A stretch of 64,000 nt of DNA from the NCBI GenBank assembly GCA_965204115.1, contig OZ241963.1:468622-532621 (forward strand). Reading direction: 5' to 3'. A model generated the notes under the pieces. The model worked only from the letters and a program-made list of their open reading frames with translations. It was not told where the DNA came from and did not search any database. This document shows, piece after piece, positions 28,064 through 45,824 of this stretch; position 1 is the first letter of the stretch, and every line of letters begins with the position of its first letter. Origin of the DNA: Minisyncoccota bacterium. Lineage in GTDB: Bacteria; Patescibacteriota; Minisyncoccia; Phycocordibacterales; JABAAK01. Position numbers and translations under genes: made by a program.

Positions 28064-28378
28064 TCTGGTTTCCTCCTCAAAATAGCGTTACAAGACCTTT
28101 TTAGGGTCTTTTTTGTTAAGGCTCAAACTACAGTTATTATACAATACTGTAGCAAATATGCAAGTTACCGTAGGCACTTGCTGAGCGATATTATCTGACT
28201 TTACCCCGCTCTTCTGGCACCAGTATACCGCACCCCTTTCTCGCTGCCAATACCGATTTCTTGTTTTTGCAGTAGTCGGTTTGGTGCGGAAGGGGGTGGG
28301 ATAGGTTGGGGTGAGGGGCTCTTTGATTATTGTGTTGCATTTTCCGCCGTGTATTTTTTCAGGGTTGTATACTGGGAA

Positions 28379-31300: not shown

Positions 31301-33419
31301 TGGATCTGATGGAGTGTCATTTATCAGATGCCCGACTGATCTTGCGTATGGCTGTCACCATGGGTTTTTTGAGGTTGCACTTGTCGCATCGGAAGGCGAC
31401 CCTGCCGCCGCGGTTCACAGCATCTGTGAGCATATGCCGGATAAGCCGGAGTTGGGGAAGGTGAGTTGCTATCATGGTGCCGGTCACGGGATAATGATGC
31501 ATGAGAGCCATGACTTAGATAGAGCACTTGCGGTGTGCGATCAGTTGTCTCACGGGCGGAATATTTGCTATGATGGTGTTTTTATGGAGCATATTAACGC
31601 AAGGCATGGTCTCGGATCGGAGAATAATCAGTTTGATGTTCATAATCCCCTTGCGCCGTGTAATGTTGTTGCAGAGAAGTATCGGCATGATTGCTTCTAT
31701 CGGCATGGGAACTATCTGTTCCCCTATTTCGGGTATTTATTGGAGGATGTTATTGAGGCGTGTCTCGGTGCCGGTGAGCACATTGAGGTGTGCTTGACTG
31801 CTGTTAGCGGCTCTTTGTTTCTTCCCAGTTTTCAGGAGCGGGTGTTTCCCGGTATGCGAGGTTCATTAGCGGATAAGGCGACGACGATATGCGGTGTGTT
31901 TCCTGATGGGTACAAGCGTGTCTGTTATGTTGTTTTTGCCGGAGAGGCGACTATTTTTCATGGAGCGAAAGAGGCATCAACTCTTTGCTCTGATGTTGAT
32001 AAGGTATATCAATCGTTATGCCTGAGAGAGGTTAATAGGAGAGTTAATGATTTGGCGGCAACTGATTACGAGCGAATTGCGATGTGTGCTGCTGTTTCTG
32101 AAGAGTACCAGCATGTATGCTTGTCTGAAGGTGATTTTGATCGTCGTTCTGATCAGGCTGAGGAGACAGCAAGTTCCACCCCCCCCTCTTTTTTACACGA
32201 CTTATTTGCTTATGTGGATAGTGTTGTGCGCTCATTTTTTTCCGCGGTTGTCGCTATAAAGCGTCCTATCAAGAATGTATCTCATGCTGATTGTGATGCC
32301 TCTCCTGTATGGCGATATGTGGGTGATTTTGTGTATGGAGGTGTTGGGGATCGTGACTATTTCGGGGATGCCGTCTCTTTATTCGGCACTACGCTTGCGG
32401 TTGGTGCGTTTGGAGATGATGCTGGTGATATTGACACTGGGGCGGTGTATTTGTTTGAGTTGGGGGGTGGCGCCCTCGGAGATCCGTTACTTAAAATTTC
32501 CGGCGAGCAAGCAGGAGAGGGATTGCTTAATGTCGGTTTGGAGGCGAGAGATCGTCTTGGCAGAGGTTTGTCACTTCAGGGCAATACTCTTGCGGTGGGC
32601 GCGTATTATGATTCAGAAAAGAAGGGGGCAGTATATCTGTTTGAGTCGGATGCTGAAGGTGTTTGGAGTCAGTCGCTCAAGATATCTGACAATGAAGGTG
32701 GTAAAGGATTACTTCCGATTTCTCTGAGTCGTGCCGCTCATTTTGGCGCATCTGTGTCGTTGCACGGTAACAGATTGGCAGTCGGCGCATATTTGTCTGA
32801 TGACGGTATGGGTGCGGTGTATCTGTTTGAGAGGGATGCTGACGGTATTTGGTCATACCTGTTGAAGTTGTCCGGGACAGTTGTTCCGCATGAGCGGGAT
32901 GCTGCGTTTGGGCGATCTGTTTCCCTGTATGGTGATTTTTTGGCAGTCGGCGCACCTCGGAGTGGCCCTGGAGATACCGGGGCGGTATATCTTTTTAATC
33001 GCGATGCATCTGGCACATGGGATCTTGTGTTAGAATTTTCTGTCACTGGTGCGGGAGTTGACTTGTCAGAGGGTCTGGATGAGAATGATCATTTCGGAAC
33101 CTCAGTTTTTCTTCGTGATACTGTTCTTGCGGTCGGTGCGTATGGAGATGATAGTGAAATTGCTGATACCGGAGCAGTGTACTTATTTGAGAAGAGTGTC
33201 GGCAGTAACTGGGAGCAATCGTTGAAGATATCTAATGCCAGTGAGTTATTCATCGTGCCTCTTGAGGAGGGCGGGATGTTCGGGAGTGCTGTCTCGTTTT
33301 CCGATGAGGTGTTAGTTGTCGGTGGATACCTGTATGATAGCGGGGGCACTGAAAGAGGTGTGGTTTATTTATTTGAAAATGAGTTGCAAAATACTTGTTC
33401 TGCTCAATATCGCCTATGA
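28379..33419 (+). CDS. Giant secreted protein: three copies of a novel Cys/His-rich module of about 400 aa, followed by a C-terminal FG-GAP beta-propeller
   Basis: Signal peptide. Module hallmarks recur three times: (E/G)RDACY..LC.YE.GYLCAE.VL, GH.L.H.VGR, FLRCP.D...GCFHGFFE, CYHG.GHG.MM, C..GVFMEN, DNPLAPC, ACLGAG. The C-terminal roughly 370 aa carry seven FG-GAP-like blades (FG.SVSL.G..LAVGA...D.GAVYLFE). Confidence 0.7.
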
Positions 33420-34651
33420 TTATGTTAAGCCGTGTAAAAAGAAAAAGTGTGCCATTTGTTATTGCGGTCATTTTTTTGATTATTCTTTTCACACTTGCTT
33501 TTTTGTTTGTGGGGGCAACAGAGGATCAAAGGGGTGGTCATTCAGCAATGATGCGTTCTGTAAGTCGGTGTTTAGAGCGGGATGGTGAGCGAGATGCGTG
33601 CCTTGCATCTTTGTGTGAACATGAAGTTGGCTATTTGTGTGCTGAACATGTTGTTGATATGGCGACTAAGGTTGGTGGACCTGAGGCGGGAATGGATGCT
33701 TTGCGGCAGATATTGGAGGGTCCTGTTTTCGGAATTGACTCAAACGGGCATCAGTTGGCACATATTGTGGGCAGGGCATCTTCGTTGCACTGGGGATTCT
33801 CCGGTGATGTTTTTAATCGGTGTCCTATTGATTTTGACTATGGTTGTTTGCATGGTTTTTTTGAGATTGCCATGACCAAAGTTGACTCCCCGACGGATGT
33901 ACTTGTTAGTATTTGTGAAAATGCATCTAACGGTCCGAAGTTTGATAAAGTGAATTGCTATCACGGCGGCGGACATGGTGTCATGATGAATGAGAGTTAC
34001 AACCTTGATAAGGCGCTCTCAGTATGTGATTCTTTGCCGGCTGATTTCATGCGTCGGGATTGTTGGGGAGGTGTCTTTATGGAGAATAATAATAGGTTTC
34101 GAAATGGTTTGGTGGCGGATGAACAGAGCACATTCCGCTCGGACAATCCGCGCGCGCCTTGTGACTCTGTGGCAGATAAGTATCGGCATTCGTGCTGGAT
34201 ACTTCATGCTGATTATCTGATTAACGCCTACAGCACTTCATTGGATGATTTGATTGATGTTTGTCTTGGGGCCGGTGATTATGTTGAGGGATGTTTGCAT
34301 GGTGTCGCCAGGATATTTTCCGCTGAACGGCAGGATGTTATACTCCGCGGATCTGATATTGAGATAGAGGGAGACTTTGTCGATCGCACTTTCCAGTTAT
34401 GCGATAAGTTTCCCGATGATTATGTGCAGTCATGCCATTTTTTTGTTGTTGAGCATTTTATATTTCCGTATAAACTTCGCACTGGCTTTGATCAGGCACA
34501 TAAATATTGCATGCTCGTTGATTCTGATCGGGGTGAATGTTTTGAAAGAATAGGAATTCGTCTCAGCGATTTGATGGATGATGACGCGCGAGTGGCTATG
34601 TGTGAGGCTGTTCCACCTGAATGGCGCGATAGGTGTTCCGATGCTCGGTAA
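33416..34651 (+). CDS. Secreted protein with a single Cys/His-rich module; paralog of the 28379 modules
   Basis: N-terminal TM or signal segment. Same motif set: ERDACLASLCEHEVGYLCAEHV, GHQLAHIVGR, FNRCPIDFDYGCLHGFFE, CYHGGGHGVMM, GVFMEN. Overlaps the upstream stop by 4 bp. Confidence 0.6.
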   Translation: MIMLSRVKRKSVPFVIAVIFLIILFTLAFLFVGATEDQRGGHSAMMRSVSRCLERDGERDACLASLCEHEVGYLCAEHVVDMATKVGGPEAGMDALRQILEGPVFGIDSNGHQLAHIVGRASSLHWGFSGDVFNRCPIDFDYGCLHGFFEIAMTKVDSPTDVLVSICENASNGPKFDKVNCYHGGGHGVMMNESYNLDKALSVCDSLPADFMRRDCWGGVFMENNNRFRNGLVADEQSTFRSDNPRAPCDSVADKYRHSCWILHADYLINAYSTSLDDLIDVCLGAGDYVEGCLHGVARIFSAERQDVILRGSDIEIEGDFVDRTFQLCDKFPDDYVQSCHFFVVEHFIFPYKLRTGFDQAHKYCMLVDSDRGECFERIGIRLSDLMDDDARVAMCEAVPPEWRDRCSDAR

Positions 34652-34707
34652 TAGGTTGCAGTGTTTTACTGAAATTGATGTTGTGTCATACTGTTACTAT
34701 TGTGCTT

Positions 34708-36216
34708 ATGAGAAAAGAGTTGTTGGCAGTTATTTTTTTGCTTTTCCTGTGTGTGGCGTTGAGTGTATTTTTTGTGCTTGATTTCGGTTTTGATGGCGCT
34801 GATCGCGCTTCACCGGATGTGGCTTTGACGCCTGCTATGGATTCAGAGAAGTTGTTGTATGACGATGCGTTTATGGATGAGATGCTGCAGTTGTATTCAC
34901 TGCGGTCGTTGACCGCTTCGCTGAGCCGTCTTGGGTCTGTGAAAGGGATTGATTGTCATGATCGCGCGCATGAGCTGGGGCGGCGGGCGTATGAGACGGT
35001 CGGTTCTGAGGCGTTTAAGAGTTGTGGCATTGAGTGTCATTCCGGCTGTCGGCATGGTGCTACCGAGGCGTTTTTTGCTGATAAGGGGACCTCCGATTTA
35101 ATCAGTGGCATGGGGGTTCTCTGCGGAGATGAGATGGGCAATAAGTTTCATATGCACCAATGTATTCATGGTATTGGGCACGGACTGATGGCGTGGTATG
35201 ATTATGATTTGCATAAGGCGTTGCAGGCGTGTGATTTGATAGAGCACCCGTTTCATCAGGGCTCTTGTTATTCTGGTGTGTTTATGGAGAATATCGTGGG
35301 CAGTATTGTTCGTGACAAATCGGTTCCTGATGGGGAGGTGTACCATCATACAGATTTTTTGAGTGATGATCCGCACTACCCATGTAATGCGATTGCTGAT
35401 CGGTACAAGTGGCAGTGTTACTGGGGTCAGACGGATCGCATGCTTCAGCTTTCTGGAAATATTAACTTATTAGGGGATTTTTGCGCCGAGTCACCGGAGT
35501 TTGTTCATGGTGCTTGTTTTCATAGTATGGGGCGAACCACCTCCGGTTTTTTTTCTCGTGACATAGGGCAGAGCTTTGCAGTGTGTGACGCGGTTCCTGA
35601 TGCTGCAAACAGAAATATCTGTATGGGGGGTGTGTTGTCTGATCTTTTTTGGGATCAAACACATGCCGATCGAGCGGTGGCTTTTTGTGAGATGTCATTA
35701 AACACTTCGTTTGAAGAGCGATGTTATGAAAACCTGATTATCAGGGCTTCTGAGACTGTTTCCGATGTGGATATGCGGTGGTTCTGTGAGAAGTTGCCTG
35801 ATGCCTACTATGAACAATGTGCGCATCAGGAGACACCGCGGGCATTTCCTATTTCTACACAGGGCGATATCTCGCCTGTCGCCGTGGAGAAAACCGATAC
35901 CGCGGTTATTCGGTATGTGGATGGCAGGTATGTTCCTGATGCGGTTCATATCTCAGTCGGGCAGGAGGTGGTGTGGGTGAATGAGGATGGTAAACGGTTG
36001 TTTTGGCCTGCGTCTAATATCCACCCGACGCATACTGCGTACCCGGGGTCTGCTATTCAGAAGTGTGGTACTGATGAGCAGGGGGGTATTTTTGATGCAT
36101 GTGAAGGGTTGCCGCGTGGCGCGGAGTATTCATTTGTGTTTACCGAGGTGGGGCAGTGGCGGTTTCACGATCATATCAATCCGCGGGCAGCGGGTACGGT
36201 GATTGTTTCTGAGTGA
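34708..36216 (+). CDS. Secreted protein: Cys/His-rich module (divergent) plus a C-terminal His-cluster beta domain
   Basis: Signal peptide. Module variant CHDRAHELGRRAYE...CHSGCRHGATEAFF...CIHGIGHGLMA...GVFMEN. C-terminal 110 aa: WPASNIHPTHTAYPGS...CGTDE...FHDHINPRAAGTVIVSE. Confidence 0.65.
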   Translation: MRKELLAVIFLLFLCVALSVFFVLDFGFDGADRASPDVALTPAMDSEKLLYDDAFMDEMLQLYSLRSLTASLSRLGSVKGIDCHDRAHELGRRAYETVGSEAFKSCGIECHSGCRHGATEAFFADKGTSDLISGMGVLCGDEMGNKFHMHQCIHGIGHGLMAWYDYDLHKALQACDLIEHPFHQGSCYSGVFMENIVGSIVRDKSVPDGEVYHHTDFLSDDPHYPCNAIADRYKWQCYWGQTDRMLQLSGNINLLGDFCAESPEFVHGACFHSMGRTTSGFFSRDIGQSFAVCDAVPDAANRNICMGGVLSDLFWDQTHADRAVAFCEMSLNTSFEERCYENLIIRASETVSDVDMRWFCEKLPDAYYEQCAHQETPRAFPISTQGDISPVAVEKTDTAVIRYVDGRYVPDAVHISVGQEVVWVNEDGKRLFWPASNIHPTHTAYPGSAIQKCGTDEQGGIFDACEGLPRGAEYSFVFTEVGQWRFHDHINPRAAGTVIVSE

Positions 36217-36293
36217 TTTTCACCGTTCTGTTGCATGTGGTACAGTGTGGTCAGAAATTGACGCTGTGTCAGTTGTGTATTTTGGTGTAAAAA

Positions 36294-38495
36294 GTGATTT
36301 CCCGAGATGTTTTCGGGAAGGAGGAATGCAGAGTGAGTAGATTGACGGAGATTATAACGGTGATGATTGTGTTTATTGTTTCAGTGGTGCTATTTTCGCC
36401 ATACACCCACGGCGATATTCGATTTGAGGAAGTTTCACACCACGCAGGGATTGTGCGAGTTGGTGAGAGTTGGGGGAATGCTTGGGGTGACTTTAACGGA
36501 GATGGATACCTTGACTTGTGGGCAACGAATCATCGGCATAAGCCGTGTCTCTATCAGAATAACGGTGACGGTACTTTCACGAATGTCATTGACGAGGTTT
36601 GGAACGCGAATCCATCTGCGGACACCCATGGTGTCGCGTGGGCGGATTTTGACAACGATGGTGACCAAGACCTCATTGTTCTGTCAGGCGGTACTGGTGG
36701 TCTTAATAACAGGGCTCGTGATAACAATGCTAATCATTTGTATGTAAATACTGACGGGCAGTTGGTGGAGCGAGCTGCTCATCTCGGCGTGGATTATCCG
36801 CTTTTGCGGGGGAGGACGCCGCTGTGGCTTGATTGGAATGGGGACGGTTTGCTTGATGTTCTATTAACCGGTGTTGCCCGAAAGGATGCATCCGGAGCGC
36901 TTGTCAGATCAACCCTCTTCAGTCAGGTGGATGGACGGTTTAAAGATGTGAACAGTATTTCAGGATTCTCTCTGGAGGAGAGTGTGGAATTTGCGCAACT
37001 AACGCACCTGACCGGTGAAGAGGGATTACACCTCATTTGCGGTTCTCATTCCCATATATATCCCGCTGCTGTGTACGACTTGTCGGGTGCGCTCTTGCAT
37101 AACATAACAGGTGCTTTGAATTTGCAGGGTGGCTTTGTTGTTCAGGATGCCGCAATTGCGGATATGAACGGCGATCTGCTGCCGGACATATTTCTTGCAC
37201 GGGGTATTTATCCGTCCAGTGTTCGTCAGCCGAGTGCGCGTAGGTTGGAACTTAATATTCAGAGCACCTTAGGGGTGCTTCCCCAATCTATCCTTGAGGA
37301 GAAGGGTGTCAGTTTCAGATCTGACGGCGCGGTGTTTTTTGAGGTTTATTCGGAATGGAAGCCGCGTCGTGATTTGGTTAAGATCGGCTCGGGTGGGCAT
37401 CCGGTAACATCTTTTGACAGTGGCATCTTTGCCGGTGTTATGCCGGACCTTAAGGCAGCGTCTTTTAAAGTTCGGCTGTCGCCGAGTAATCCGAGAGCCC
37501 AGGGGTTGCAGGCGCGTCGGGAAAATGAAAAGTTTGGGATTTACATAGGGTACAATGCCCGCACAAAAAAGTGGGAAATCCTTTATCGCAATCTGCCCGC
37601 GACAACATTGGTTGAGGCGGGCAATCCCATAACAGATGTGGAACCATTCAATTTCTTCCCTTCGGTTAATATGCATGGTGATTTGCTGATGCACAAGGGG
37701 AATGATTTTGAGGTGCTGTCTCCGTTGGGTGAAGCAGGGTTTCCGGATTGTCATTCTGTTGCGGCGGGGGACTTTGATAACGATATGGATGTTGATCTGT
37801 ATCTTGTCCGCTCAAGTACGGGTGAAAACCTCCCGAACTGTCTGTATGAGAATAATGGTGTCGGATATTTTATCCGAGTCAGGAATGCTGGCGGAGCGGC
37901 GGCGAATGTGGATGGCAGAGGTCAAAGTGTTACTGTTGCTGATTATGACCGGGACGGCTTCCTTGATCTTTTTGTGACCAACGGGAGAGGGGCGTACCCT
38001 TTCAGTGAAGGCCCCGACCAACTTTTCCGTAACCGTGGTAACAGCAACAACTGGCTTCAGATTGATTTAGAGGGATCTGTTTCCAACAGAGACGGTATCG
38101 GCGCGAAGGTTCTCGTCGTGACACCTGACGGAAAAACACAAGCGCGAGAAAACGGCGGCGGCATCCACTGGGCGCAGCAAGATCAGAAGCGTATTCATTT
38201 CGGGCTTGCGCAGAATGACAGCATTGTTGAGCTGACCGTTTTTTGGCCGAGCGGTATTGTGCAGAGGTTGCGGAATGTGGCGGTAAACCAGGTGCTGCGT
38301 ATTATTGAGACCGATGTTCAGGAGTCCCTCCACGGTGATGTTAATCAAGATGGGGTCGTCAATGTTTTGGATCTTGTTATTGTGGCGAAGCACTTCGGTG
38401 AAAGTCCTCTCGCTGATGTGTCGGCTGATGTGAACAAAGACGGGGCAGTGAATATTCTGGACCTCGTTGCCATCGCAAATGTAATGAGCAAATAA
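36294..38495 (+). CDS. FG-GAP repeat / ASPIC-UnbV (CRTAC1-like) protein with a C-terminal type-I dockerin
   Basis: Multiple FG-GAP Ca-binding loops (FNGDGYLDL, ADFDNDGDQDLIV, LDWNGDGLLDV, GDFDNDMDVDLYLV, ADYDRDGFLDLFVTNG). ASPIC/UnbV signature NRGN..NWLQIDLEG..SNRDGIGAKV...HFGL....ELTVFWPSG. C-terminal DVNQDGVVNVLDLVIVAKHFG and DVNKDGAVNILDLVAIANVM form a dockerin duplicate. Confidence 0.7.
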   Translation: MISRDVFGKEECRVSRLTEIITVMIVFIVSVVLFSPYTHGDIRFEEVSHHAGIVRVGESWGNAWGDFNGDGYLDLWATNHRHKPCLYQNNGDGTFTNVIDEVWNANPSADTHGVAWADFDNDGDQDLIVLSGGTGGLNNRARDNNANHLYVNTDGQLVERAAHLGVDYPLLRGRTPLWLDWNGDGLLDVLLTGVARKDASGALVRSTLFSQVDGRFKDVNSISGFSLEESVEFAQLTHLTGEEGLHLICGSHSHIYPAAVYDLSGALLHNITGALNLQGGFVVQDAAIADMNGDLLPDIFLARGIYPSSVRQPSARRLELNIQSTLGVLPQSILEEKGVSFRSDGAVFFEVYSEWKPRRDLVKIGSGGHPVTSFDSGIFAGVMPDLKAASFKVRLSPSNPRAQGLQARRENEKFGIYIGYNARTKKWEILYRNLPATTLVEAGNPITDVEPFNFFPSVNMHGDLLMHKGNDFEVLSPLGEAGFPDCHSVAAGDFDNDMDVDLYLVRSSTGENLPNCLYENNGVGYFIRVRNAGGAAANVDGRGQSVTVADYDRDGFLDLFVTNGRGAYPFSEGPDQLFRNRGNSNNWLQIDLEGSVSNRDGIGAKVLVVTPDGKTQARENGGGIHWAQQDQKRIHFGLAQNDSIVELTVFWPSGIVQRLRNVAVNQVLRIIETDVQESLHGDVNQDGVVNVLDLVIVAKHFGESPLADVSADVNKDGAVNILDLVAIANVMSK

Positions 38496-38504
38496 CAGTG
38501 TTTA

Positions 38505-38537
38505 CCCGCAGGCAATGTCTGCGGGTCTACTTTTTTG
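38505..38537 (+). terminator. Rho-independent terminator after 36294..38495
   Basis: CCCGCAGGCAATGTCTGCGGG hairpin followed by CTACTTTTTT. Confidence 0.65.
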
Positions 38538-38612
38538 TGGTGTGGCGATTGTTTCTGAGTGATTTCCACACAGTTTATTGCTCTTGCCCGTTGCGGTGTA
38601 TACTTGGTGTGT

Positions 38613-40019
38613 ATGGTTACTGAGAGGGTTTTTATTTTGTCTTTCTTGCTTGCATCTTTTTTTGCTGTTTCTTTGCTTTCTGCTGGTGTTGTGTATGCGC
38701 ATGGGGGTGAGGAGCATGCTGGGTTGGCGTCTGAGGTGAATGTGTGTCATTCGTTGTCGGAGGCGGAGCGAAGAGCATGTTATTCGGCGACCTGTGAAGG
38801 TGGTGTGACGGATGAGTGTCTGGAGGATATTGTTGATGCGGCGGTGGATGGTTCCGGTTTGAGGTTTGCTAATGCTGTGATGGCTGACTTGGAGAGTGCT
38901 GGGCTGTTAGATGATGCTGGCGTGTCTTTGTACGGACTTGCGCAACGAATAGGGGAGGTGATGGCACAGCAATATGTTGATGGCTTAGGGCCTATGACTT
39001 TTATGGATTGTGAGGTTGACCATCATTACGGGTGTCATTATGGGTATTTTGAGAAAGTGCTCTCTGCAGATGGTGTTTCGCTGGACATCATTTCAGCTGT
39101 TATTTGTGATGTGGATACTTCTCAGCAGGATGTGTGTTATCATCGGATGGGGCATATGTTTTTGAAACACCATAACTACTCGCTCTCTCCTGCGCTCTCT
39201 CAGTGCGATGCGTTGCCGAGCGCATTTCGAGCATACTGTTGGGATGGGGTGTTTATGGAGAATGTGAATGAATTTTTCTTCTCCAGGCGTGAGGGAGGTG
39301 ATGGGTTTATCAGTGATGAGCGGCCATTTGCCCCGTGTGATGCTATTGATGAGCGGTATCGTGAGCAGTGTTTTAAGAATCATGGTAGGTATCTGATTTA
39401 TTGGTTTGAGGATGCCCCTTTTGATGTGTTGGATGTTTGTGGTGACATTGAGGTCGGTGAATACGACGAGGTGTGTCGGCACTCAATTCGGGATGCCTCT
39501 TCCGGTGTGGATAGTCACCATACGCATGACGATATGGATACTATGCGTGGTGATGGGGTGGCGGATTCACGGTCATGGTTTCAGAAGCTGATTGACTTTG
39601 TTGTTGGGTTGTTTTCTGGTGGAGGTTCATCGGATCGGGTTGGTTCAGATGGTGAGGCATTTTCACGCATGTTTCCTGATGGTGTTGCACCGAGTGAGGT
39701 GGACCATAGTGTTATGATTTCCTATGAGAATGGGCAGTTTGTGCCGAATGAGGTGCGTATCGCGCCCGGGCAGGCGGTGCTGTGGATGAATAATGATCAG
39801 GTGTTTTGGCCTGCGGGGGATTTGCACCCGACGCACCGTGAATATCCCGGATCAAATATTACGAAGTGTCATACTGATGAGCGGTCAATGATTTTTGACG
39901 CATGTGAGGCGATGGGTCCCGGCGCGGCGTATGCTTTTCGGTTTAATGAAGTCGGTGAGTGGAAATTCCACGACCATATTAATCCAAAAGCGACGGGTAC
40001 GGTGATTGTGTCTCGCTGA
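38613..40019 (+). CDS. Secreted protein: Cys/His-rich module plus a C-terminal His-cluster beta domain; paralog of 34708..36216
   Basis: Signal peptide FILSFLLASFFAVSLLSAGVVYA. Motifs ERRACYSATCEGG, DCEVDHHYGCHYGYFE, CYHRMGHMFL, GVFMEN, FAPCD. C-terminus WPAGDLHPTHREYPGSNITKCHTDE...FHDHINPKATGTVIVSR. Confidence 0.65.
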   Translation: MVTERVFILSFLLASFFAVSLLSAGVVYAHGGEEHAGLASEVNVCHSLSEAERRACYSATCEGGVTDECLEDIVDAAVDGSGLRFANAVMADLESAGLLDDAGVSLYGLAQRIGEVMAQQYVDGLGPMTFMDCEVDHHYGCHYGYFEKVLSADGVSLDIISAVICDVDTSQQDVCYHRMGHMFLKHHNYSLSPALSQCDALPSAFRAYCWDGVFMENVNEFFFSRREGGDGFISDERPFAPCDAIDERYREQCFKNHGRYLIYWFEDAPFDVLDVCGDIEVGEYDEVCRHSIRDASSGVDSHHTHDDMDTMRGDGVADSRSWFQKLIDFVVGLFSGGGSSDRVGSDGEAFSRMFPDGVAPSEVDHSVMISYENGQFVPNEVRIAPGQAVLWMNNDQVFWPAGDLHPTHREYPGSNITKCHTDERSMIFDACEAMGPGAAYAFRFNEVGEWKFHDHINPKATGTVIVSR

Positions 40020-40135
40020 TGGTTGGTGTTTGTGTCTTGTTGCTTTTCTTGCGGTTATTTTTTGTATTTTTTCTGGGGCTGTGTGTTTTAGCGTGTTATA
40101 CTGACATTAGATTTTTTGAAAGGAGGGTTCTACCA

Positions 40136-40237
40136 ATGGCTGAAATTTTTGTTGGTGCTGTTGTTGCCGTGTCACTCATTGTGTTGACGGTGGTTGTTGC
40201 GCAACAGTTGGTTTCTTCCGGCGGCAGGGTGCAGTAG
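40136..40237 (+). CDS. Small hydrophobic peptide, 33 aa; possible
   Basis: A GGAGGG Shine-Dalgarno sits 8 nt upstream of ATG. The product MAEIFVGAVVAVSLIVLTVVVAQQLVSSGGRVQ is a single TM helix. A terminator follows. Confidence 0.3.
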   Translation: MAEIFVGAVVAVSLIVLTVVVAQQLVSSGGRVQ

Positions 40238-40261: not shown

Positions 40262-40300
40262 AGAGCGGCTCTTTTGAGCCGCCTTTTATTTATTTTGTTG
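40262..40300 (+). terminator. Terminator hairpin GCGGCTC-TTTT-GAGCCGC plus T-tract (copy 1 of a duplicated sequence)
   Basis: Seen directly. Follows the plus-strand operon. The identical 18-bp hairpin recurs at 41934..41953. Confidence 0.6.
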
Positions 40301-40313
40301 ACAAAATGGCTTT

Positions 40314-40432
40314 TGCAAATAAAATGCAAAAATATCCTTATTTTAAGGGATATTTTTTTTATTTGCAAACCGCTGTGCAAATAAAATGTGAAAATATCCT
40401 TATTTTAAGGGATATTTTTTTTATTTGTAAAT
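40314..40432. repeat. Two tandem 56-bp nested palindromes with a 63-bp period
   Basis: TTTGCAAATAAAATG(C/T)(A/G)AAAATATCCTTATTTTAAGGGATATTTTTTTTATTTG(C/T)AAA occurs twice. Outer arms TTTGCAAATAAAA / TTTTATTTGCAAA. Inner arms ATATCCTTA / TAAGGGATAT. Confidence 0.8.
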
Positions 40433-40440
40433 ACAGGGTT

Positions 40441-41874
40441 TTATATCAAACGCTTGGATGGAAGGGTGTATAGTGTGCTCTTTTTGCTTCCGTCAGGGCT
40501 GATTCTTTTTAATAGGCCCTTTGCAACCCAGTTCGCGAGTGTGCGTGACATTTCATCTGTCTGAGTGATGCCGGTAATTTCTCGTGCTTTTGCGTTGTCA
40601 ATATGCATTGCATGAGCAAGGTGATTGCGTATCTTTTTCCATTCGCTTGAACACTTTTCATTTTTCAGCACTAGTTTTACGCAGTAGTGCAGGTCTGGGT
40701 ATGTTATGAAAAGAGGCGGGTAGAGATTGTTTTTCTCCATCTCTCCTCGCATTGCTTTGACACTCTCGTTGCGGTCAAGGTTGGGTGGTTCCGGAAAATC
40801 TCTGAGCGTTTTGATTATAAGATCATTTCGGAACCCCATCGCTCGCTCGTTGCCGATGTTGTGTTTTGTTATGTTAAATGGAAATAATCCTGGGTTGGTA
40901 ATTTCGATTCTGTTGGGGAATATGTTAATTTCTATGTCTTGTTTTATGTGGTAGTCGCGGTGTATGATTGCATTGGTTATGCCTTCCTTGACTGCGCGCT
41001 CAGGTAAGGCGAATGATGTCTTGAACCCTGCGCGGATTTCAATTCCTGTGTTTAGAATCTGTAATACCTGCCTCTGTGTTTCTTGTATTACCTGTGTAAT
41101 TGCCCCTTGAATAATTTGTGGCACTCCAGTAAAGTTTGGCGTTTCCCCGAGCACTTCTTCATTTGTTGTGTACACTGCGATTTTTACGGCACATTTTGTT
41201 TCCATAAGGTTGGTTGGGTGTTCGGCGAACAGTAGCACAGCAGCTCGTGTTGGTTTTAGTGTTCCTGTGCGCTCACCCTTTCTCGCCAGTCCTTTTGATT
41301 CCAGAACATGACCGATGCCTTCACCCTTTTCCCTTAGTTTATTCTTTTTTGCCCATTGTTGGTAGTGTGTGGTTTCAAGTAAATCAATGGATACTCGGTC
41401 AACCAATTCTGCTTCTGCCCGCTTAAATCCTTTCGCATAACTGAGCTGTAGGGCTTCATGCGGTGCCAACTCTTTGTTACCTTTGTTGAGACGGATGAAC
41501 ATCCTTTTGTTTACACTGTGAAGTGATTCTTGCGCTTTTGGTATGCGTAGCAGAGCAATGGTTTTATCGTTTGGCGCATGAACTTTTTCACATCGGGTAG
41601 GTATTTGCGGTATGACTTTGCCTAAGCAGCGAATTATTTCGTCAAAATTTTCTTTATTCTCCTCAATGCCAAATATTCGGCCGTGTCCTTTTAGTGTTGT
41701 TTTTTCAGGGTCACTGACCCCTAAGATAATGGTGCCGCCGTCGGCGTTGGCCATTGCCACCGATGCCTGTAAAACAGATTTGACGGTCTTGGAGTCATTG
41801 CCGAGTCGCTTGAATTCAATTTCGTTGCTCTCTTCGGGGATTTCTAATATTTGTTTTATCGATATCGGTTTCAT
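40441..41874 (-). CDS. AlbA_2 (Schlafen-like 'divergent AAA') domain protein with a C-terminal HATPase_c_4/wHTH region; putative nucleic-acid-binding regulator or defence factor
   Basis: N-terminus EIEFKRLGNDSKTVKSVLQASVAMANADGGTIILGVSD matches the AlbA_2 signature. Length 477 aa. The C-terminal region has a helix-turn-helix character (AKAREITGITQTDEMSRTLANWVAKGLLKR). Confidence 0.7.
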   Translation of the reverse strand: MKPISIKQILEIPEESNEIEFKRLGNDSKTVKSVLQASVAMANADGGTIILGVSDPEKTTLKGHGRIFGIEENKENFDEIIRCLGKVIPQIPTRCEKVHAPNDKTIALLRIPKAQESLHSVNKRMFIRLNKGNKELAPHEALQLSYAKGFKRAEAELVDRVSIDLLETTHYQQWAKKNKLREKGEGIGHVLESKGLARKGERTGTLKPTRAAVLLFAEHPTNLMETKCAVKIAVYTTNEEVLGETPNFTGVPQIIQGAITQVIQETQRQVLQILNTGIEIRAGFKTSFALPERAVKEGITNAIIHRDYHIKQDIEINIFPNRIEITNPGLFPFNITKHNIGNERAMGFRNDLIIKTLRDFPEPPNLDRNESVKAMRGEMEKNNLYPPLFITYPDLHYCVKLVLKNEKCSSEWKKIRNHLAHAMHIDNAKAREITGITQTDEMSRTLANWVAKGLLKRISPDGSKKSTLYTLPSKRLI

Positions 41875-41931
41875 AGCAGTACTATATCATTAAATGAAAT
41901 GGTTTGTGTGGAGGGGGTGTCCTGCATTTTA

Positions 41932-41968
41932 GGGGCGGCTCTTTTGAGCCGCTTTTTATTTTTGTTTG
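41932..41968 (+). repeat. Second copy of the terminator-hairpin sequence GGGGCGGCTCTTTTGAGCCGCTTTTTATTTTTG, with no plus-strand gene to terminate
   Basis: Same 18-bp hairpin core and T-tract as 40262..40300. Together they flank the AlbA_2 gene and the tandem palindromes. Confidence 0.6.
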
Positions 41969-42501
41969 TGGTTGCGGTTGAAGGCGGCGATGTAGTTGTC
42001 TATGAGGGTGCGGGTGGATTGTTGGACGGTCATGCCGAGGTTGTAGCAGGTGAGTTGGCGTTCTTTGTCCCCGGTGTCTTGCTGGCTGAGGATGTTGTTT
42101 AGCTTTCCGGATGAGTCCTGTAGGTTGGAGAACATTTTGTTTATAAATTCGGTGAATCGCTCTTTCTCTTCGTGTAGTTCTTCGTGCTGTTCTATATGGT
42201 TCTCTATCTTTGCTGTCAGGAGTGTTGTCCTCTCCATTATGTTGTTGCAGCGCTGGCGGCAACTGTTGCCGTAGGTGGTGGCCTCAAAGTCGCGTATCCT
42301 CGGGTCAATGAGAAGCTCGTTTGCAAAGATGTTTTTCAGTTCGTCAAGGAGGGTGCTCATTGCATCGGCTGCTGTTACTTGTTCTTGTTCGGGCGGTTCC
42401 TGTTCGGTTTTTACCCTTCTCAGTTTTGCTAATAGTTTTTTGATCATACGATTGCAGTATACTCTGTTTTTGTGTGGGTAGTGTGCTTCGGTGTATGGCA
42501 C
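41956..42501 (-). CDS. Hypothetical coiled-coil protein
   Basis: 181-aa ORF. The true start may be the internal MIKKLLAKL. Charged and helical. Confidence 0.35.
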   Translation of the reverse strand: MPYTEAHYPHKNRVYCNRMIKKLLAKLRRVKTEQEPPEQEQVTAADAMSTLLDELKNIFANELLIDPRIRDFEATTYGNSCRQRCNNIMERTTLLTAKIENHIEQHEELHEEKERFTEFINKMFSNLQDSSGKLNNILSQQDTGDKERQLTCYNLGMTVQQSTRTLIDNYIAAFNRNHKQK

Positions 42502-44451: not shown

Positions 44452-44752
44452 GGTGTGAGTTACTATAAACATTTTTTTGTCCTGTAAATGCAGGATATTT
44501 TAATTAAAGTCCTTGTTTTATAGGGTTTTATTTTGTTTATAGTAAGTTTTTACTGTATGGTTTGTTTTGTCCTTTGTTTGTGGTATTTTTTGACGACTGT
44601 TGATTTTTATATTGATTTTGCTTGTTATTTTTTGTGATAGTGTTTCGGCGTTACTATGAGTATAATTTTGTCTTTTGTTTATAGGGTATTTTTTCTATCG
44701 TATGTTTTTGTCTTATTTTTCCTTGCTATTTTTTACCTTATAGTATATACTG

Positions 44753-45751
44753 TTGCTGATGAAGAAAATAGGAAGCACAAAACAAAAGATGTTGGATCTC
44801 TTGCGTGATCAATGTCTTTCTCCACTTGATTTACAACAGGCACTTGGTATCAGTGCTTCTGTGGTGCATGGACATCTGCGGTTCTTGTTGCGCGAAGGTT
44901 TTGTTGAGAAAGTTGGAAGTGCGCCGCGAGTTTGTTATATAGTGCGTAAAGAAAGTGCGGCTGATGCTGTTAATGAGCATTTTGTGTTTCAGGATTCATT
45001 GGGGAAATTGCATCATGGTATGGATGGGTTTCGTCTGTGGTCTCAGCAAGGTTTGAAGAAGATGTCTTTTGAAGAGAAGATCGCTTTGTATGCTGACCGG
45101 ATTTCAGTGATGCAGTCGAACAGAAAGGGTTTTTTCTTTGATTTGACTGGCAAGTTACAGAAAGTCAAAGATGTCGGGGAAGATGTATACCTCAAAGAGT
45201 TGGCATCTCTTTCCCTGCGTACCTTGCAGGACTTTGGTAGAACCAAAATGGGGGTGTATATGGATGTTGTAAAGGGTATTGGCACTAGTACTGCAGCAGT
45301 TATGGATATTATGGATATGATTTTGGATTTTTCTGTTCCGCTTATTATTGCATACGCTAAAAAACATCAAGTAAATGCTGTTGGCTTTATCTCTCCCACA
45401 CGCAAACGACAGAATCAAATTATGACTTTTTTGGAAAAACGGTTTCGTAAAGGACCACTTCGTGTAGCTGCTGTGGATATAAAAAAAATTCGTGGTCCTA
45501 TTTTTCGTGAGCAGAAAACTATTCGTGATTTGCGGGATAGGATTCATAATGCAAATCGTACTTTTCAGATCTCTCCGTATTCACATGTTCATAACTATAA
45601 AAGGATATTACTCGTTGATGACTTTGTTGGGTCTGGCACAACGCTCAATCAGGTTGCGAAGATGTTACGACAGTCGGGTTTTGCCGGAGAGGTTTTTGGG
45701 CTTGGCGTTGTCGGTGAAGAGCGCGGCTATAGCATTGAGAAAGTTTCTTGA
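44753..45751 (+). CDS. Winged-HTH plus phosphoribosyltransferase (PRTase, ComF-like) fusion protein
   Basis: N-terminal wHTH (LDLQQALGISASVVHGHLRFLLREGFVEK). C-terminal PRPP-binding motif ILLVDDFVGSGTTL. Confidence 0.6.
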   Translation: MLMKKIGSTKQKMLDLLRDQCLSPLDLQQALGISASVVHGHLRFLLREGFVEKVGSAPRVCYIVRKESAADAVNEHFVFQDSLGKLHHGMDGFRLWSQQGLKKMSFEEKIALYADRISVMQSNRKGFFFDLTGKLQKVKDVGEDVYLKELASLSLRTLQDFGRTKMGVYMDVVKGIGTSTAAVMDIMDMILDFSVPLIIAYAKKHQVNAVGFISPTRKRQNQIMTFLEKRFRKGPLRVAAVDIKKIRGPIFREQKTIRDLRDRIHNANRTFQISPYSHVHNYKRILLVDDFVGSGTTLNQVAKMLRQSGFAGEVFGLGVVGEERGYSIEKVS

Positions 45752-45824
45752 TTTTTCTCATTGGCAAAAAAGGGTGTGTTTGGGGTGTTTGTGTCTGTAG
45801 AAAAGGTGGTACAATAAGGACAGT

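Follow-up and report, generated by a model that had tools for sequence, protein, structure and literature searches.

Prokaryotic Schlafen proteins (pSlfn) have recently been described as a family of anti-phage tRNases, for which the catalytic motif Ex4(E/D)xK has been defined (Perez Taboada et al., Nat Microbiol 2026, PMC13056530). The commonest architectures of the family are Slfn-HisKinase (34%) and Slfn-HisKinase-HTH (19%). The validated systems are DUF262-Slfn and Ig-like-Slfn, and HisKinase-type Schlafens did not protect against the coliphages with which they were tried; a defence role is therefore unproven for this architecture. A Schlafen and a GHKL module also occur together in SLFN-pAgo-GHKL fusions (preprint 10.64898/2026.05.29.728809).

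The locus considered here differs from the published pSlfn systems in its host, a candidate-phyla (Kaiserbacteria-like) bacterium with a ~0.66-Mb genome. In the window, as we call the whole 64-kb stretch of DNA that was analysed, a minus-strand AlbA_2 gene and two tandem 56-nt palindromes lie between two hairpins, all as listed in an earlier note on this DNA (Table 1). The gene is the only ORF between the hairpins. Its product matches the Pfam families SLFN_AlbA_2 (PF04326; 64.7 bits against a cutoff of 25.3, residues 15-136) and HATPase_c_4 (42 bits, cutoff 26). The catalytic motif is intact (E15-SNEI-E20-F-K22), with E15, E20, and K22 invariant in 34 homologs. In Foldseek searches with an AF2 model of the protein (pLDDT 83.4), the N-terminal domain matches the nuclease domains of SLFN13/14/5/11 and the last ~65 residues fit the structures of MarR winged helices to 2.5-3 Å. 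With this nuclease domain, the motif, a GHKL/histidine-kinase-type ATPase, and a C-terminal helix-turn-helix predicted from the model, all encoded by a single gene, the protein can be assigned to the pSlfn HisKinase-HTH type. The modelled three-part architecture is shared over the full length with DIP2311 of Corynebacterium diphtheriae (PDB 3lmm; E 4e-19), although identity is 13-16% and DIP2311 is a structural-genomics protein without assigned function. Unlike the SLFN-pAgo-GHKL fusions, the window protein has no Argonaute core and ends in a winged helix; the shared Schlafen and GHKL module accounts for a PADLOC "pAgo" match over model positions 52-439 of 1121. A PADLOC search, which the earlier note had suggested, returned no complete known system: matches were partial ones to Schlafen-Argonaute-type models (pAgo/Aga), and the neighbouring genes had none except for a PRTase-like gene 2.9 kb away. 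The connection of AlbA_2/Schlafen proteins with anti-phage defence, also drawn in that note, is documented for the family in PMC13056530, and the window protein may have such a role.

Table 1. Features of the Schlafen locus, with positions counted from the first nucleotide of the window
Feature	Position	Strand	Remarks
Extended -10 promoter TGTTATACT of the small-ORF unit	40094..40102	+	Inferred from sequence
Small ORF, 33 aa, hydrophobic (MAEIFVGAVVAVSLIV...)	40136..40237	+	Final plus-strand coding unit ahead of hairpin 1
AGAAAGGTGGTGATCC box, then ACATCTTAA	40236..40251	+	Belongs to the ancestral terminator unit
Hairpin copy 1 with T-tail	40265..40296	+	Predicted terminator of the small-ORF/plus-strand unit; orthologous to hpA of L124 and the hairpin of L263
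Junction filler, T-tail to cassette	40292..40311	.	Includes a 16-nt palindrome, ATTTTGTTGACAAAAT, as well as the -35 element belonging to a sigma-70-like site
Double-palindrome trailer (PP)	40312..40433	-	Two 56-nt units: 40376-40431 gene-proximal, 40314-40369 distal
Prokaryotic Schlafen gene, 477 aa	40441..41874	-	Slfn/AlbA_2 nuclease domain, GHKL (HATPase_c_4), C-terminal MarR-like winged helix
Cassette promoter TGATATAGT	41880..41888	-	Extended -10, 6 nt from ATG; inferred
Remnant of a second small-ORF/terminator unit (ATGAAATGGTTTGTGTGGAGGGGGTGTCC...)	41893..41931	+	From alignment
Hairpin copy 2 with T-tail	41935..41966	+	Between 181-aa gene and Schlafen promoter; positional ortholog of the ancestral terminator
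Conserved 181-aa core gene	41956..42501	-	Stop codon in T-tail of hairpin 2

The arrangement TATAGT-N6-ATG at the start of the Schlafen gene recurs in L001, L003, and L257, and the short distance between the -10 element and the ATG leads to the prediction that the Schlafen mRNA is leaderless. The closest homologs (60-66% identity) sit in five other genomic contexts, and Schlafen homologs adjoin GmrSD, Fic, SocA/Panacea, DUF3800, and ZorA-like genes. Homology to these other cassettes stops near 41890 and at 40312. A second strain encodes a protein at least 90% identical to the window protein on a 24,099-bp contig, which probably also carries this strain's DUF11-neighbour homolog, likewise found on a 24,099-bp contig. 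Searches of plasmids by tblastn detected relatives of 24-29% identity only. On viral contigs no Schlafen homolog was found, and the pattern of the PP central site (see below) gave chance or coding matches only.

Terminator copies and variable cargo

The 18-nt stem-loop GCGGCTCTTTTGAGCCGC occurs exactly at 40265-40282 and at 41935-41952, in the longer forms AGAGCGGCTCTTTTGAGCCGCCTTTTATTT (at 40262) and GGGGCGGCTCTTTTGAGCCGCTTTTTATTT (at 41932). These are its only copies in the window even with two mismatches allowed (0.01 expected), and none of 100 shuffled sequences contained two or more matches. The direct repeat around the hairpins reaches 39 nt at 85% identity with a spacing of 1670, and the similarity fades over ~70 nt with identity dropping outward; upstream of the stem, homology continues for ~45 nt at lower identity. 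No further copy exists in the window, which makes up 64 kb (~10%) of the ~661-kb (661,662-bp) genome, or in ~150 kb of related contigs beyond this locus. The REP-like spread that the earlier note had named as a counter-argument is thus not seen, and a REP/BIME or MITE-like dispersed element was rejected, with two hairpin copies in 64 kb, both at one locus, and one PP cluster per contig. The 18-mer itself is a generic terminator stem, which is found singly in at least 120 unrelated genomes, Acinetobacter and Oscillospiraceae among them; the 80 loci listed do not include the window's genome, and these matches carry no information on REP-like spread.

On the plus strand both copies are predicted intrinsic (Rho-independent) terminators: copy 1 folds at -16.9 kcal/mol (z -5.3), copy 2 at -17.2 kcal/mol (z -4.7), and each is followed by a T-run. 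For copy 1, and for the presence of the same hairpin at both sites, this bears out the earlier note. Copy 2, which was thought to terminate nothing on the plus strand, does not stand idle. The stop codon of the minus-strand 181-aa gene (41956-41958) falls inside its T-tail, and its position is that of the single terminator in the distant relatives L125 and L126; it is the positional ortholog of the ancestral convergent terminator beside the 181-aa gene. On the minus strand its stem folds at -13.9 kcal/mol without a U-tail. The 181-aa gene is conserved among the relatives, with tblastn identities of 87% to the close relative L124, 65% to L125, and 59% to L126. On the other side of the segment, the small ORF has a GAAAGGAGG ribosome-binding site and 35-aa orthologs in L124 and L263, a further close relative, where the promoter element TGnTATACT is found upstream as well. 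The AGAAAGGTGGTGATCC box, which we take to be a near-perfect complement to the usual 16S rRNA 3' end, is kept ahead of the hairpin in L124 (hpA), L263, L125, and L126. Both window copies align to this ancestral unit of small ORF, Shine-Dalgarno-like box, and hairpin, and the remnant ahead of copy 2 can be aligned with the 3' end of the small ORF and with the box that precede the L125 and L126 hairpins. Because of this alignment and the upstream homology, the two hairpins can be regarded as paralogous copies of a local terminator unit, and the repeat as a duplication of that unit rather than a transposon target-site duplication.

The comparison with relatives, also proposed earlier, revealed a variable segment. 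At the orthologous site, L125 and L126 are empty and have one hairpin. In L263 the identical hairpin is present, and behind it lies an unrelated pair of genes for 59 and 171 aa; this cargo is flanked by TTTTATTTTTG, an 11-nt T-tail repeat. In L124 the hairpin is followed by a scar, made up of a single PP arm plus the final two codons and the stop of the Schlafen gene, that is fused to the middle of an L263-type cargo; the promoter-small ORF-hairpin unit of L124 has also undergone an independent tandem duplication without an AlbA_2 gene. The Schlafen gene is thus missing from the orthologous site in all four relatives. The cargo of L124 and L263 matched no Pfam or PADLOC family, and the idea that it is a degraded Schlafen gene was rejected for lack of any protein or DNA similarity. 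The GC content of the window segment is 0.39-0.45 versus 0.48-0.55 in the flanks. Taken together, these comparisons support the view that the ~1.6-kb Schlafen segment is strain-variable accessory DNA at a terminator. The earlier proposal of a 1.67-kb cargo inserted at the hairpin therefore stands insofar as the segment is accessory and missing in L125 and L126, whereas the repeat is no clean insertion footprint. A transposon or IS element was rejected: the sole ORF is no transposase, PP is present at one end only, and the repeat of at least 39 nt at 85% identity fades over ~70 nt. Unrelated alternative cargo at one fixed position in sister strains is shared with the pangenome defence hotspots of Pseudomonas and E. 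coli. The slot described here differs from these in that it consists of just one intrinsic terminator, lies in a minimal genome, and has a one-gene cargo; no integrase or tRNA was found at the Schlafen site. Another variable slot lies 2.6 kb off.

The double-palindrome trailer

The two PP units are arranged in tandem with a period of 62 and are 95% identical. Together they contain four TTTGCAAATAAAA-type arms; the central site reads TTTTATTTGCA-N8-TGCAAATAAAA, and the inner hairpins have the form ATATCC..GGATAT. Each arm equals one half of the 18-bp perfect palindrome TTTTATTTG/CAAATAAAA (TTTTATTTGCAAATAAAA). The palindromes had been listed earlier as a separate feature. They belong instead with the gene: PP directly follows the Schlafen stop codon in L001, L003, L257, and L258, whose proteins are 60-66% identical and have different neighbours, and its polarity relative to the gene is always the same among the homologs that carry it. 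A search of 1.96 Mb with a profile of the PP unit gave strong matches only at these Schlafen loci, with far higher scores in the gene-sense orientation; a Nitrospiraceae homolog (L260) has no clear PP. Judging from this linkage, PP is the conserved 3' trailer of the Schlafen cassette and part of the cargo.

In metagenomes, the arms TTTTATTTGCA and TGCAAATAAAA also trail homologs of 24-49% identity. Behind homologs that are 24-66% identical, the arm sequence and the spacing of the half-sites (~45, 18-19, and ~45 nt between starts) are kept while the interior varies, and the spacer of the central site is lineage-specific. The repeats occur two or three in tandem at a constant period of 62-64 nt. 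A lox/FRT/dif-like geometry of the centre is seen in 18 metagenome loci and in all CPR copies; of the metagenome sequences that match the arm pattern, most are ordinary terminators with a perfect palindrome. Other neighbours of the tandem element are genes for ParE, AbiEi, an AAA_15/AAA_21 ATPase, and a DNA methylase, and in some cases a C-terminal piece of a Schlafen gene has been left behind there. Each PP unit forms a hairpin that is accompanied by T-runs on both strands, eight U being present on the plus strand. Folding predictions give stable structures (z -5.7 and -7.6). Strand folding energies disagree between genomes, covariation in the inner hairpin is weak (a double change in 5/19 pairs, covariation term -0.03), and the interior structure is not conserved in L153 or the L147 group. 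No Rfam family was found for PP, as a permissive search of the locus and a gathering-threshold search of 10 related loci gave tRNAs only.

The role of PP may be that of a terminator, of a site bound by a protein, or of a site for recombination. Its arms of 11-13 nt are kept across proteins of ~25% identity and a GC content of 0.28-0.48, which is not usual for terminators, and a pure terminator role for this reason under-explains the element. Integron attC cassettes and dif/pdif modules likewise combine a short ORF with an imperfect palindrome in varied contexts, sometimes with the palindrome on both sides, and the PP central site shares their inverted arms with a 6-8-nt spacer. PP differs from attC and dif/pdif in its tandem pairs and its fixed polarity after the ORF, and it is unlike dif in sequence. 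An integron cassette was rejected, since the window cassette has its own TGnTATAGT promoter, no GTTRRRY core exists at the PP boundaries, and neither IntI nor another integrase was found among the ORFs of at least 150 aa at 33-48 kb. PP was also rejected as a chromosomal dif or terminus; the GC skew is positive on both sides and no sequence likeness to dif is present. The parts of PMC13056530 that were searched describe no conserved 3' DNA element, and titles and abstracts of the literature on AlbA_2/HATPase_c_4 and COG2865 name no linked cis-element. The PP tail that travels with the Schlafen gene is possibly new, and it is the only part of the locus of which this might be said, the gene family being already known.

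Proposed origin of the cassette and its possible meaning for the host

We think it fairly probable that 40312-41890 is a self-contained, horizontally moving Schlafen cassette, which resides in a strain-variable terminator slot and entered it by recombination in or near the terminator. The cassette would consist of the extended -10 promoter, the Schlafen ORF, and the polar PP trailer. The slot would be the convergent intrinsic terminator between the small plus-strand ORF unit and the minus-strand 181-aa gene, into which cargo may be received by recombination in or beside the terminator without classical transposition. The hairpins would then belong to two copies of a unit made up of the small-ORF 3' end, the Shine-Dalgarno-like box, the hairpin, and the T-tail. 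Copy 2 would hold the ancestral place at the stop of the 181-aa gene and copy 1 would close the plus-strand unit; both neighbours would therefore retain a terminator, and the cassette would be insulated on both sides. PP most likely serves first as a bidirectional terminator and insulator of the cassette. Its arms are probably also a site for protein recognition or recombination, which would keep PP linked to defence-type cargo. The order of events is a reconstruction, because L263 and L124 each carry other cargo and no clean before/after pair of high identity exists.

A different origin of the repeat, possible if rather unlikely, is integration of the cargo by recombination with the hairpin itself, as the earlier note had suggested, either of Campbell type with a cargo-borne terminator or by a hairpin-targeting recombinase, so that the event created both copies. 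The exact 18-nt core with diverged flanks resembles attL/attR, yet the similarity extends on both sides of the core, unlike in att sites. There is one hairpin in the outgroups as opposed to two in the window, and an unrelated cargo entered at the same terminator in L263, where the T-tail repeat surrounds it; against this, the L124 unit was duplicated without cargo, the cassettes in other genomes have no copy of this hairpin, and the segment encodes no recombinase. Both L124 hairpins have a T at a position occupied by C in the window pair and in the one hairpin of L263, which fits copying within a genome. On the preferred reading, that of a duplicated local unit, identical 18-nt stems between diverged flanks call for selection or gene conversion, and Campbell-type integration of a terminator-bearing circle could explain them alternatively. 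That the hairpins are independent terminators, alike by chance or convergence, with a Schlafen gene simply native between them, might be argued from the generic nature and wide single occurrence of the 18-mer. The 0.01 matches expected in the window, the homology reaching past the stem, and the missing gene in four relatives effectively refute this reading on the sequences compared, and we regard it as extremely improbable.

For PP, an unlikely alternative is that it acts as a DNA site and not as a terminator, being either an operator array for the MarR-like winged helix of the Schlafen protein itself or a lox/FRT-like core for a host tyrosine recombinase. The operator version follows from the arms being halves of a perfect palindrome and from the predicted winged helix, but the Schlafen promoter has no PP-type site, and L260, the homolog without PP, shows no less conservation around the recognition helix. 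In the recombinase version the core would be the 11-nt inverted arms with an 8-nt spacer. A DNA site in general is favoured by the conservation of arms and spacing around a changing interior and a lineage-specific spacer, by the occurrence of the element beside other genes, and by the tRNA genes 90-110 nt beyond PP in L001 and L153. PP also forms direct repeats on either side of the gene in L003 and L257, although the repeat boundaries there lie outside PP, away from the central site. In L257 a gene for an Xer-like recombinase is found at a distance of ~100 nt from the upstream PP; this is the only such locus, no recombinase is near PP at the other loci examined, and the L257 protein has no homolog there. 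The constant sign of the GC skew, which argues against a chromosomal dif, and the many ordinary terminators among the metagenome arm matches also weigh against a DNA site. Much less likely still is a small structured RNA that controls or neutralises the Schlafen RNase, in the manner of a type III toxin-antitoxin system or as an antisense transcript. Tandem repeats of constant period beside an RNase-fold gene, their stable predicted structures, and a sigma-70-like site (TTGACA-16-TAAAAT, 40298-40325, 11/12 matches) directed into PP would fit such an RNA. In type III toxin-antitoxin systems, however, tandem RNA repeats are located upstream of the endoRNase toxin, with a terminator in between, whereas PP is downstream of the gene at every locus, and membership in this type was rejected on these grounds. 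Conservation of the plus-strand promoter does not extend to L001, L003, or L257, and the junction filler with its -35 has no homology to other cassettes; the weak covariation, the lack of interior conservation in L153 and the L147 group, and the absence of an Rfam family above threshold speak against an RNA as well.

Returning to the cassette with its trailer, a more far-reaching and speculative suggestion, which we advance with considerable doubt, is that PP is an undescribed polar cis-element with a lox-like centre and a lineage-specific 8-nt spacer. Such an element might label cassettes of one defence or toxin gene (Schlafen-GHKL-HTH, AbiEi, ParE, methylase, AAA_15) and make them mobile across distant lineages including CPR, via host Xer-type recombinases or docking of the Schlafen winged helix. 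If PP is a recombination or binding site, it would explain how single genes move without an encoded recombinase and would provide a sequence tag for finding more cargo. If it is only a terminator, the locus would be an ordinary accessory-gene insertion. The window protein has the commonest bacterial Schlafen architecture, which is itself functionally unvalidated, and the locus presents the Schlafen gene as a minimal portable unit of promoter, predicted leaderless ORF, and conserved trailer. In a ~0.66-Mb genome, this cassette would compete with other cargo for one terminator-sized slot, which may make the locus a compact natural case of the turnover of defence genes in a bacterium that has hardly any other mobile machinery.

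Hairpin pair and variable slot

The repeat that the earlier note had placed at 40262 and 41932 is an exact 18-nt plus-strand stem-loop, GCGGCTCTTTTGAGCCGC, present as copy 1 and copy 2. As also described, a single minus-strand ORF for an AlbA_2-type Schlafen protein and two tandem 56-nt palindromes lie between the copies. The possibility that the hairpin is a genome-wide REP-like element had been raised, but no further copy was found in the 64-kb window with up to two mismatches allowed, nor, outside this locus, in about 150 kb of related contigs. Only 0.01 matches would be expected in the window, and none of 100 shuffles contained two. Repeat searches extended the pair to a 39-nt direct repeat at 85% identity. 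In plus-strand folding, copy 1 reaches -16.9 and copy 2 -17.2 kcal/mol; a T-run follows both stems, which are predicted to be good intrinsic terminators. Copy 1 had been assigned as the terminator of the plus-strand unit; copy 2, which had been said to terminate nothing on the plus strand, would have a role as well. A scan of public genome contigs (L004-L123) characterized the 18-mer as a generic terminator stem, found as single copies in unrelated taxa. Its exact sequence occurs once each in more than 120 unrelated genomes, among them those of several Acinetobacter species and of many Oscillospiraceae, versus roughly 17 chance occurrences by our own estimate, so convergence seems to have favoured this terminator stem-loop.

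Orthologous loci in relatives, found via a conserved neighbour (a 659-aa DUF11 protein), gave the presence/absence comparison that had been proposed. In L125 and L126, with flanks 71-73% identical to the window, the small plus-strand ORF is followed by a AAGGGGGTGATC..ACATCTTAA box, a single hairpin and, at once, the stop of the ortholog of a conserved minus-strand 181-aa gene; this site holds no cargo. The box resembles a Shine-Dalgarno sequence and is a near-perfect complement of the usual 16S rRNA 3' end, and no conserved start codon lies 3' of it in the window or the four relatives. In L263, whose flanks are about 90% identical, the small ORF and an unaltered copy of the hairpin are present, and immediately past the T-tail comes an unrelated gene pair whose start and stop overlap. 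The repeat TTTTATTTTTG stands on either side of this pair, which has no Pfam or PADLOC family, and the site has no second hairpin. In the 171-aa protein of the pair, RKQRNRMH (R-x6-H) is a possible HEPN-like motif, and on this basis the layout would resemble a toxin-antitoxin pair. In L124 (flanks about 89% identical), TTTTTTTTGCAAATACAGGGTTTTATATCAA lies 3' of the second hairpin. It consists of one palindrome arm and the Schlafen gene's final two codons with its stop, and is joined to the middle of an L263-type cargo. A further strain encodes a Schlafen homolog with an identity of 90% or more and a homolog of the DUF11 neighbour, each recorded on a contig of 24,099 bp, probably one and the same. 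The empty sites, the other cargo and the Schlafen scar together argue that a strain-variable hotspot separates the small-ORF terminator from the 181-aa gene. At least two cargos have occupied this slot, the Schlafen cassette among them.

The similarity between the hairpin copies extends past 39 nt when they are aligned with L125 and L126. About 45 nt 5' of copy 2 match the 3' end of the small ORF and the box of these relatives, and the box is nearly intact ahead of copy 1. Thus, both copies descend from one local unit. Copy 2 sits where the ancestral hairpin lay, its T-tail containing the stop codon of the 181-aa gene, and copy 1 is orthologous to the L263 hairpin and the first L124 hairpin. 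L124 carries a tandem duplication of promoter, small ORF and hairpin, which indicates that the terminator unit can duplicate in tandem on its own. A G·U change common to both L124 hairpins, absent from the window and L263, points to hairpin copying within a genome. Transposition is a poor fit, because the repeat fades over about 70 nt without a transposase or terminal inverted repeats; recombination at a duplication-prone terminator fits. A Campbell-type insertion of the cargo may itself have created the duplication, or a duplicated unit may have existed first and been split later by the cargo. The earlier proposal of cargo inserted at, or by recombination with, the hairpin thus holds as regards accessory cargo at a terminator, but the hairpin pair is best read as a duplicated local terminator unit and not as the mark left by any familiar type of insertion.

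Other variable features lie nearby. A second slot that varies between strains lies 2.6 kb from the first; its GC content drops to 0.31-0.41, and it carries a gene with PADLOC matches to PsyrT/ShosT/PRTase models. Identity between this gene and the L124 allele is only 37.5%, versus about 90% for the flanks, and the gene is missing from L263, L125 and L126. A 733-aa FG-GAP/VCBS-type gene, dockerin-like at its C-terminus, is lacking in L124 and L263, where the Cys-rich paralog genes flanking its place are adjacent; it is a further indel in the same operon. The Cys-rich secreted paralogs share a repeated C/H-rich module without a Pfam family, two have a cupredoxin-like C-terminal domain, and the set varies between relatives.

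Coordinates of features in the window (unless a locus is named)
Feature	Position	Strand	Remarks
Conserved box AGAAAGG(T/G)GGTGATC..ACATCTTAA	40236-40263; L124 8776-8800; L263 8684-8709; L125 9385-9412; L126 9386-9414		Small-ORF stop to hairpin
Hairpin copy 1	40265-40282	plus	18 nt
Palindrome ATTTTGTTGACAAAAT with overlapping sigma-70-like site	40292-40325		16 nt, perfect
Sigma-70-like site	40298-40325		TTGACA-16-TAAAAT
Palindrome units	40314-40369; 40376-40431		56 nt each
Schlafen ORF	40441-41874	minus	477 aa
Limits of inter-cassette homology	40312; near 41890		
Segment 5' of copy 2	41893-41931		Aligns to L125/L126
Hairpin copy 2	41935-41952	plus	18 nt
Alternative cargo pair	L263 8733-9427; L124 9086-9420	minus (L263)	59 aa + 171 aa, no family match
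Second slot	44460-45800		
AT-rich hairpins (two), second slot	44478-44535		Tandem homologs in L126
HTH + phosphoribosyltransferase gene	44753-45751		Second slot
FG-GAP/VCBS-type gene	36224-38543		733 aa
Cys-rich paralogs	28311-40019		1702, 418, 527, 486 aa
tRNA genes near the trailer	L001 11671-11741; L153 2014-2190		
Repeat-rich island	L003 8500-14000		Includes DUF3800 gene
Module X	L003 8525-8735; 11438-11714		210-280 nt, two AT-rich hairpins

The Schlafen protein and its cassette

Pfam assigns residues 15-136 to SLFN_AlbA_2 (64.7 bits) and 313-391 to HATPase_c_4 (42 bits). Residues E15, E20 and K22, invariant in an alignment of 34 homologs, make up the Schlafen-nuclease catalytic motif Ex4(E/D)xK in the definition of PMC13056530. 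The AlphaFold model (pLDDT 83.4), compared with solved structures, matches the uncharacterised entry PDB 3lmm over its full length, the SLFN13/14/5/11 nuclease domains at its N-terminus, and MarR-type winged helices in its last ~65 residues. Together, these matches give the protein a 'Slfn-HisKinase-HTH' architecture. According to PMC13056530, Slfn-HisKinase (34%) and Slfn-HisKinase-HTH (19%) are the two most frequent architectures in a set of 5,930 prokaryotic Schlafens, and 69.6% of the genes have a known defence gene no more than 10 kb away; the two systems shown there to be phage-protective carry fusion partners other than HisKinase, and the HisKinase fusions assayed for protection were negative. 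The defence-database search suggested earlier gave partial PADLOC matches to Schlafen-Argonaute-type models and nothing beyond these. They agree with the SLFN-pAgo-GHKL family of a 2026 preprint (10.64898/2026.05.29.728809). No NCBIfam model was found for the protein. After one 100% identical protein, encoded on a 661,662-bp contig, the next homologs are only 60-66% identical, and are labelled Kaiserbacteria or Parcubacteria where the source names them. The gene is a new member of a known family recognised as anti-phage, in line with the link drawn earlier.

When the window was compared by BLAST with the loci of the closest homologs, the double palindrome (PP) was found to accompany the gene. 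It begins 11 nt past the stop codon in L001, and L258 has three degenerate units 3' of the gene. In L003 and L257, PP follows the gene and recurs upstream in a direct repeat of roughly 120-165 nt, which in L003 takes in 38 nt of the gene's 3' end. The gene neighbours differ across these five genomes, the window's included (RelA/SpoT; DUF3800 and SocA/Panacea; a Xer-like recombinase; ZorA-like proteins). From the limits of homology, the cassette of promoter, gene and PP measures about 1.58 kb. TATAGT-N6-ATG occurs in four of five copies, preceded by TGn in the three checked, and this spacing predicts a leaderless mRNA. In 1.96 Mb searched, a profile of PP units matched strongly only at these cassette sites. 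It strongly favours the gene-sense orientation (for example, 46.7 versus 27.5 bits in the window), and thus PP polarity is fixed relative to the gene. The palindromes belong to the cassette as its conserved tail. In the repeat-rich L003 island, the final ~25-38 nt of the Schlafen gene recur three more times, module X is present twice, and a ~130-nt promoter-like module is repeated ahead of two SocA/Panacea genes. In the window, a strong sigma-70-like site faces into the Schlafen gene in the antisense direction, and ATTTTGTTGACAAAAT overlaps its -35; this palindrome sits in 20-nt junction filler and is not common to other cassettes.

The palindromic trailer

A PP unit leads from a 5' arm TTTGCAAATAAAA through an A-run with an inner hairpin (ATATCC..GGATAT in candidate-phyla copies) and a T-run with 4-6 extra bases to a 3' arm TTTTATTTGCA. 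The arms are halves of a perfect 18-bp palindrome, TTTTATTTG|CAAATAAAA, and the units meet in a central site, TTTTATTTGCA-N8-TGCAAATAAAA, whose spacer varies by lineage. A metagenome scan with the arms of one unit found at least 120 loci. Among the matches listed, most are ordinary perfect-palindrome terminators and at least 18 loci have the central site; about ten of the latter lie directly 3' of Schlafen-GHKL homologs (24-49% identity; contig GC 0.28-0.42), and others adjoin a ParE toxin, AbiEi antitoxins, a DNA methylase or an AAA_15/AAA_21 ATPase. A leftover Schlafen C-terminal fragment was found beside the AbiEi loci L216 and L187. Since many of these loci are closely related, the matches listed represent only about four independent lineages. 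No Rfam family matches PP, and no clear copy was found at the Nitrospiraceae homolog L260. tRNA genes lie 90-110 nt beyond PP in two unrelated Schlafen loci, L001 and L153; in the window none is near the locus, the nearest tRNA being at 22.5 kb.

On the minimal reading, PP would be a double bidirectional terminator. Each unit folds as a hairpin with T-runs on both strands (eight U on the plus strand), and PP would end the Schlafen mRNA and stop read-through from the plus-strand unit. However, this leaves the conservation of the 11-13-nt arms across distant hosts unexplained. Alternatively, PP may be a DNA binding site for the protein's own MarR-like winged helix, or a lox/FRT-like recombination site. 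The geometry of arms and spacer, the PP-gene-PP arrangements, the varied defence cargo and one adjoining Xer-like gene would be in line with such DNA-level roles. Apart from that gene, however, no recombinase was found near PP in the loci examined, the repeat boundaries fall outside the central site, the cassette promoter has no operator, and the winged helix of the PP-less homolog lacks a distinguishing difference. A role as RNA antitoxin is a weak candidate: the PP repeats lie downstream of the gene, its interior is not conserved in distant copies, covariation is slight, and the sigma-70-like site directed into the palindromes is not conserved in other cassettes. Whichever role applies, the polar, conserved trailer, linked to defence-type cargo, is the sole element of the locus that may be new.
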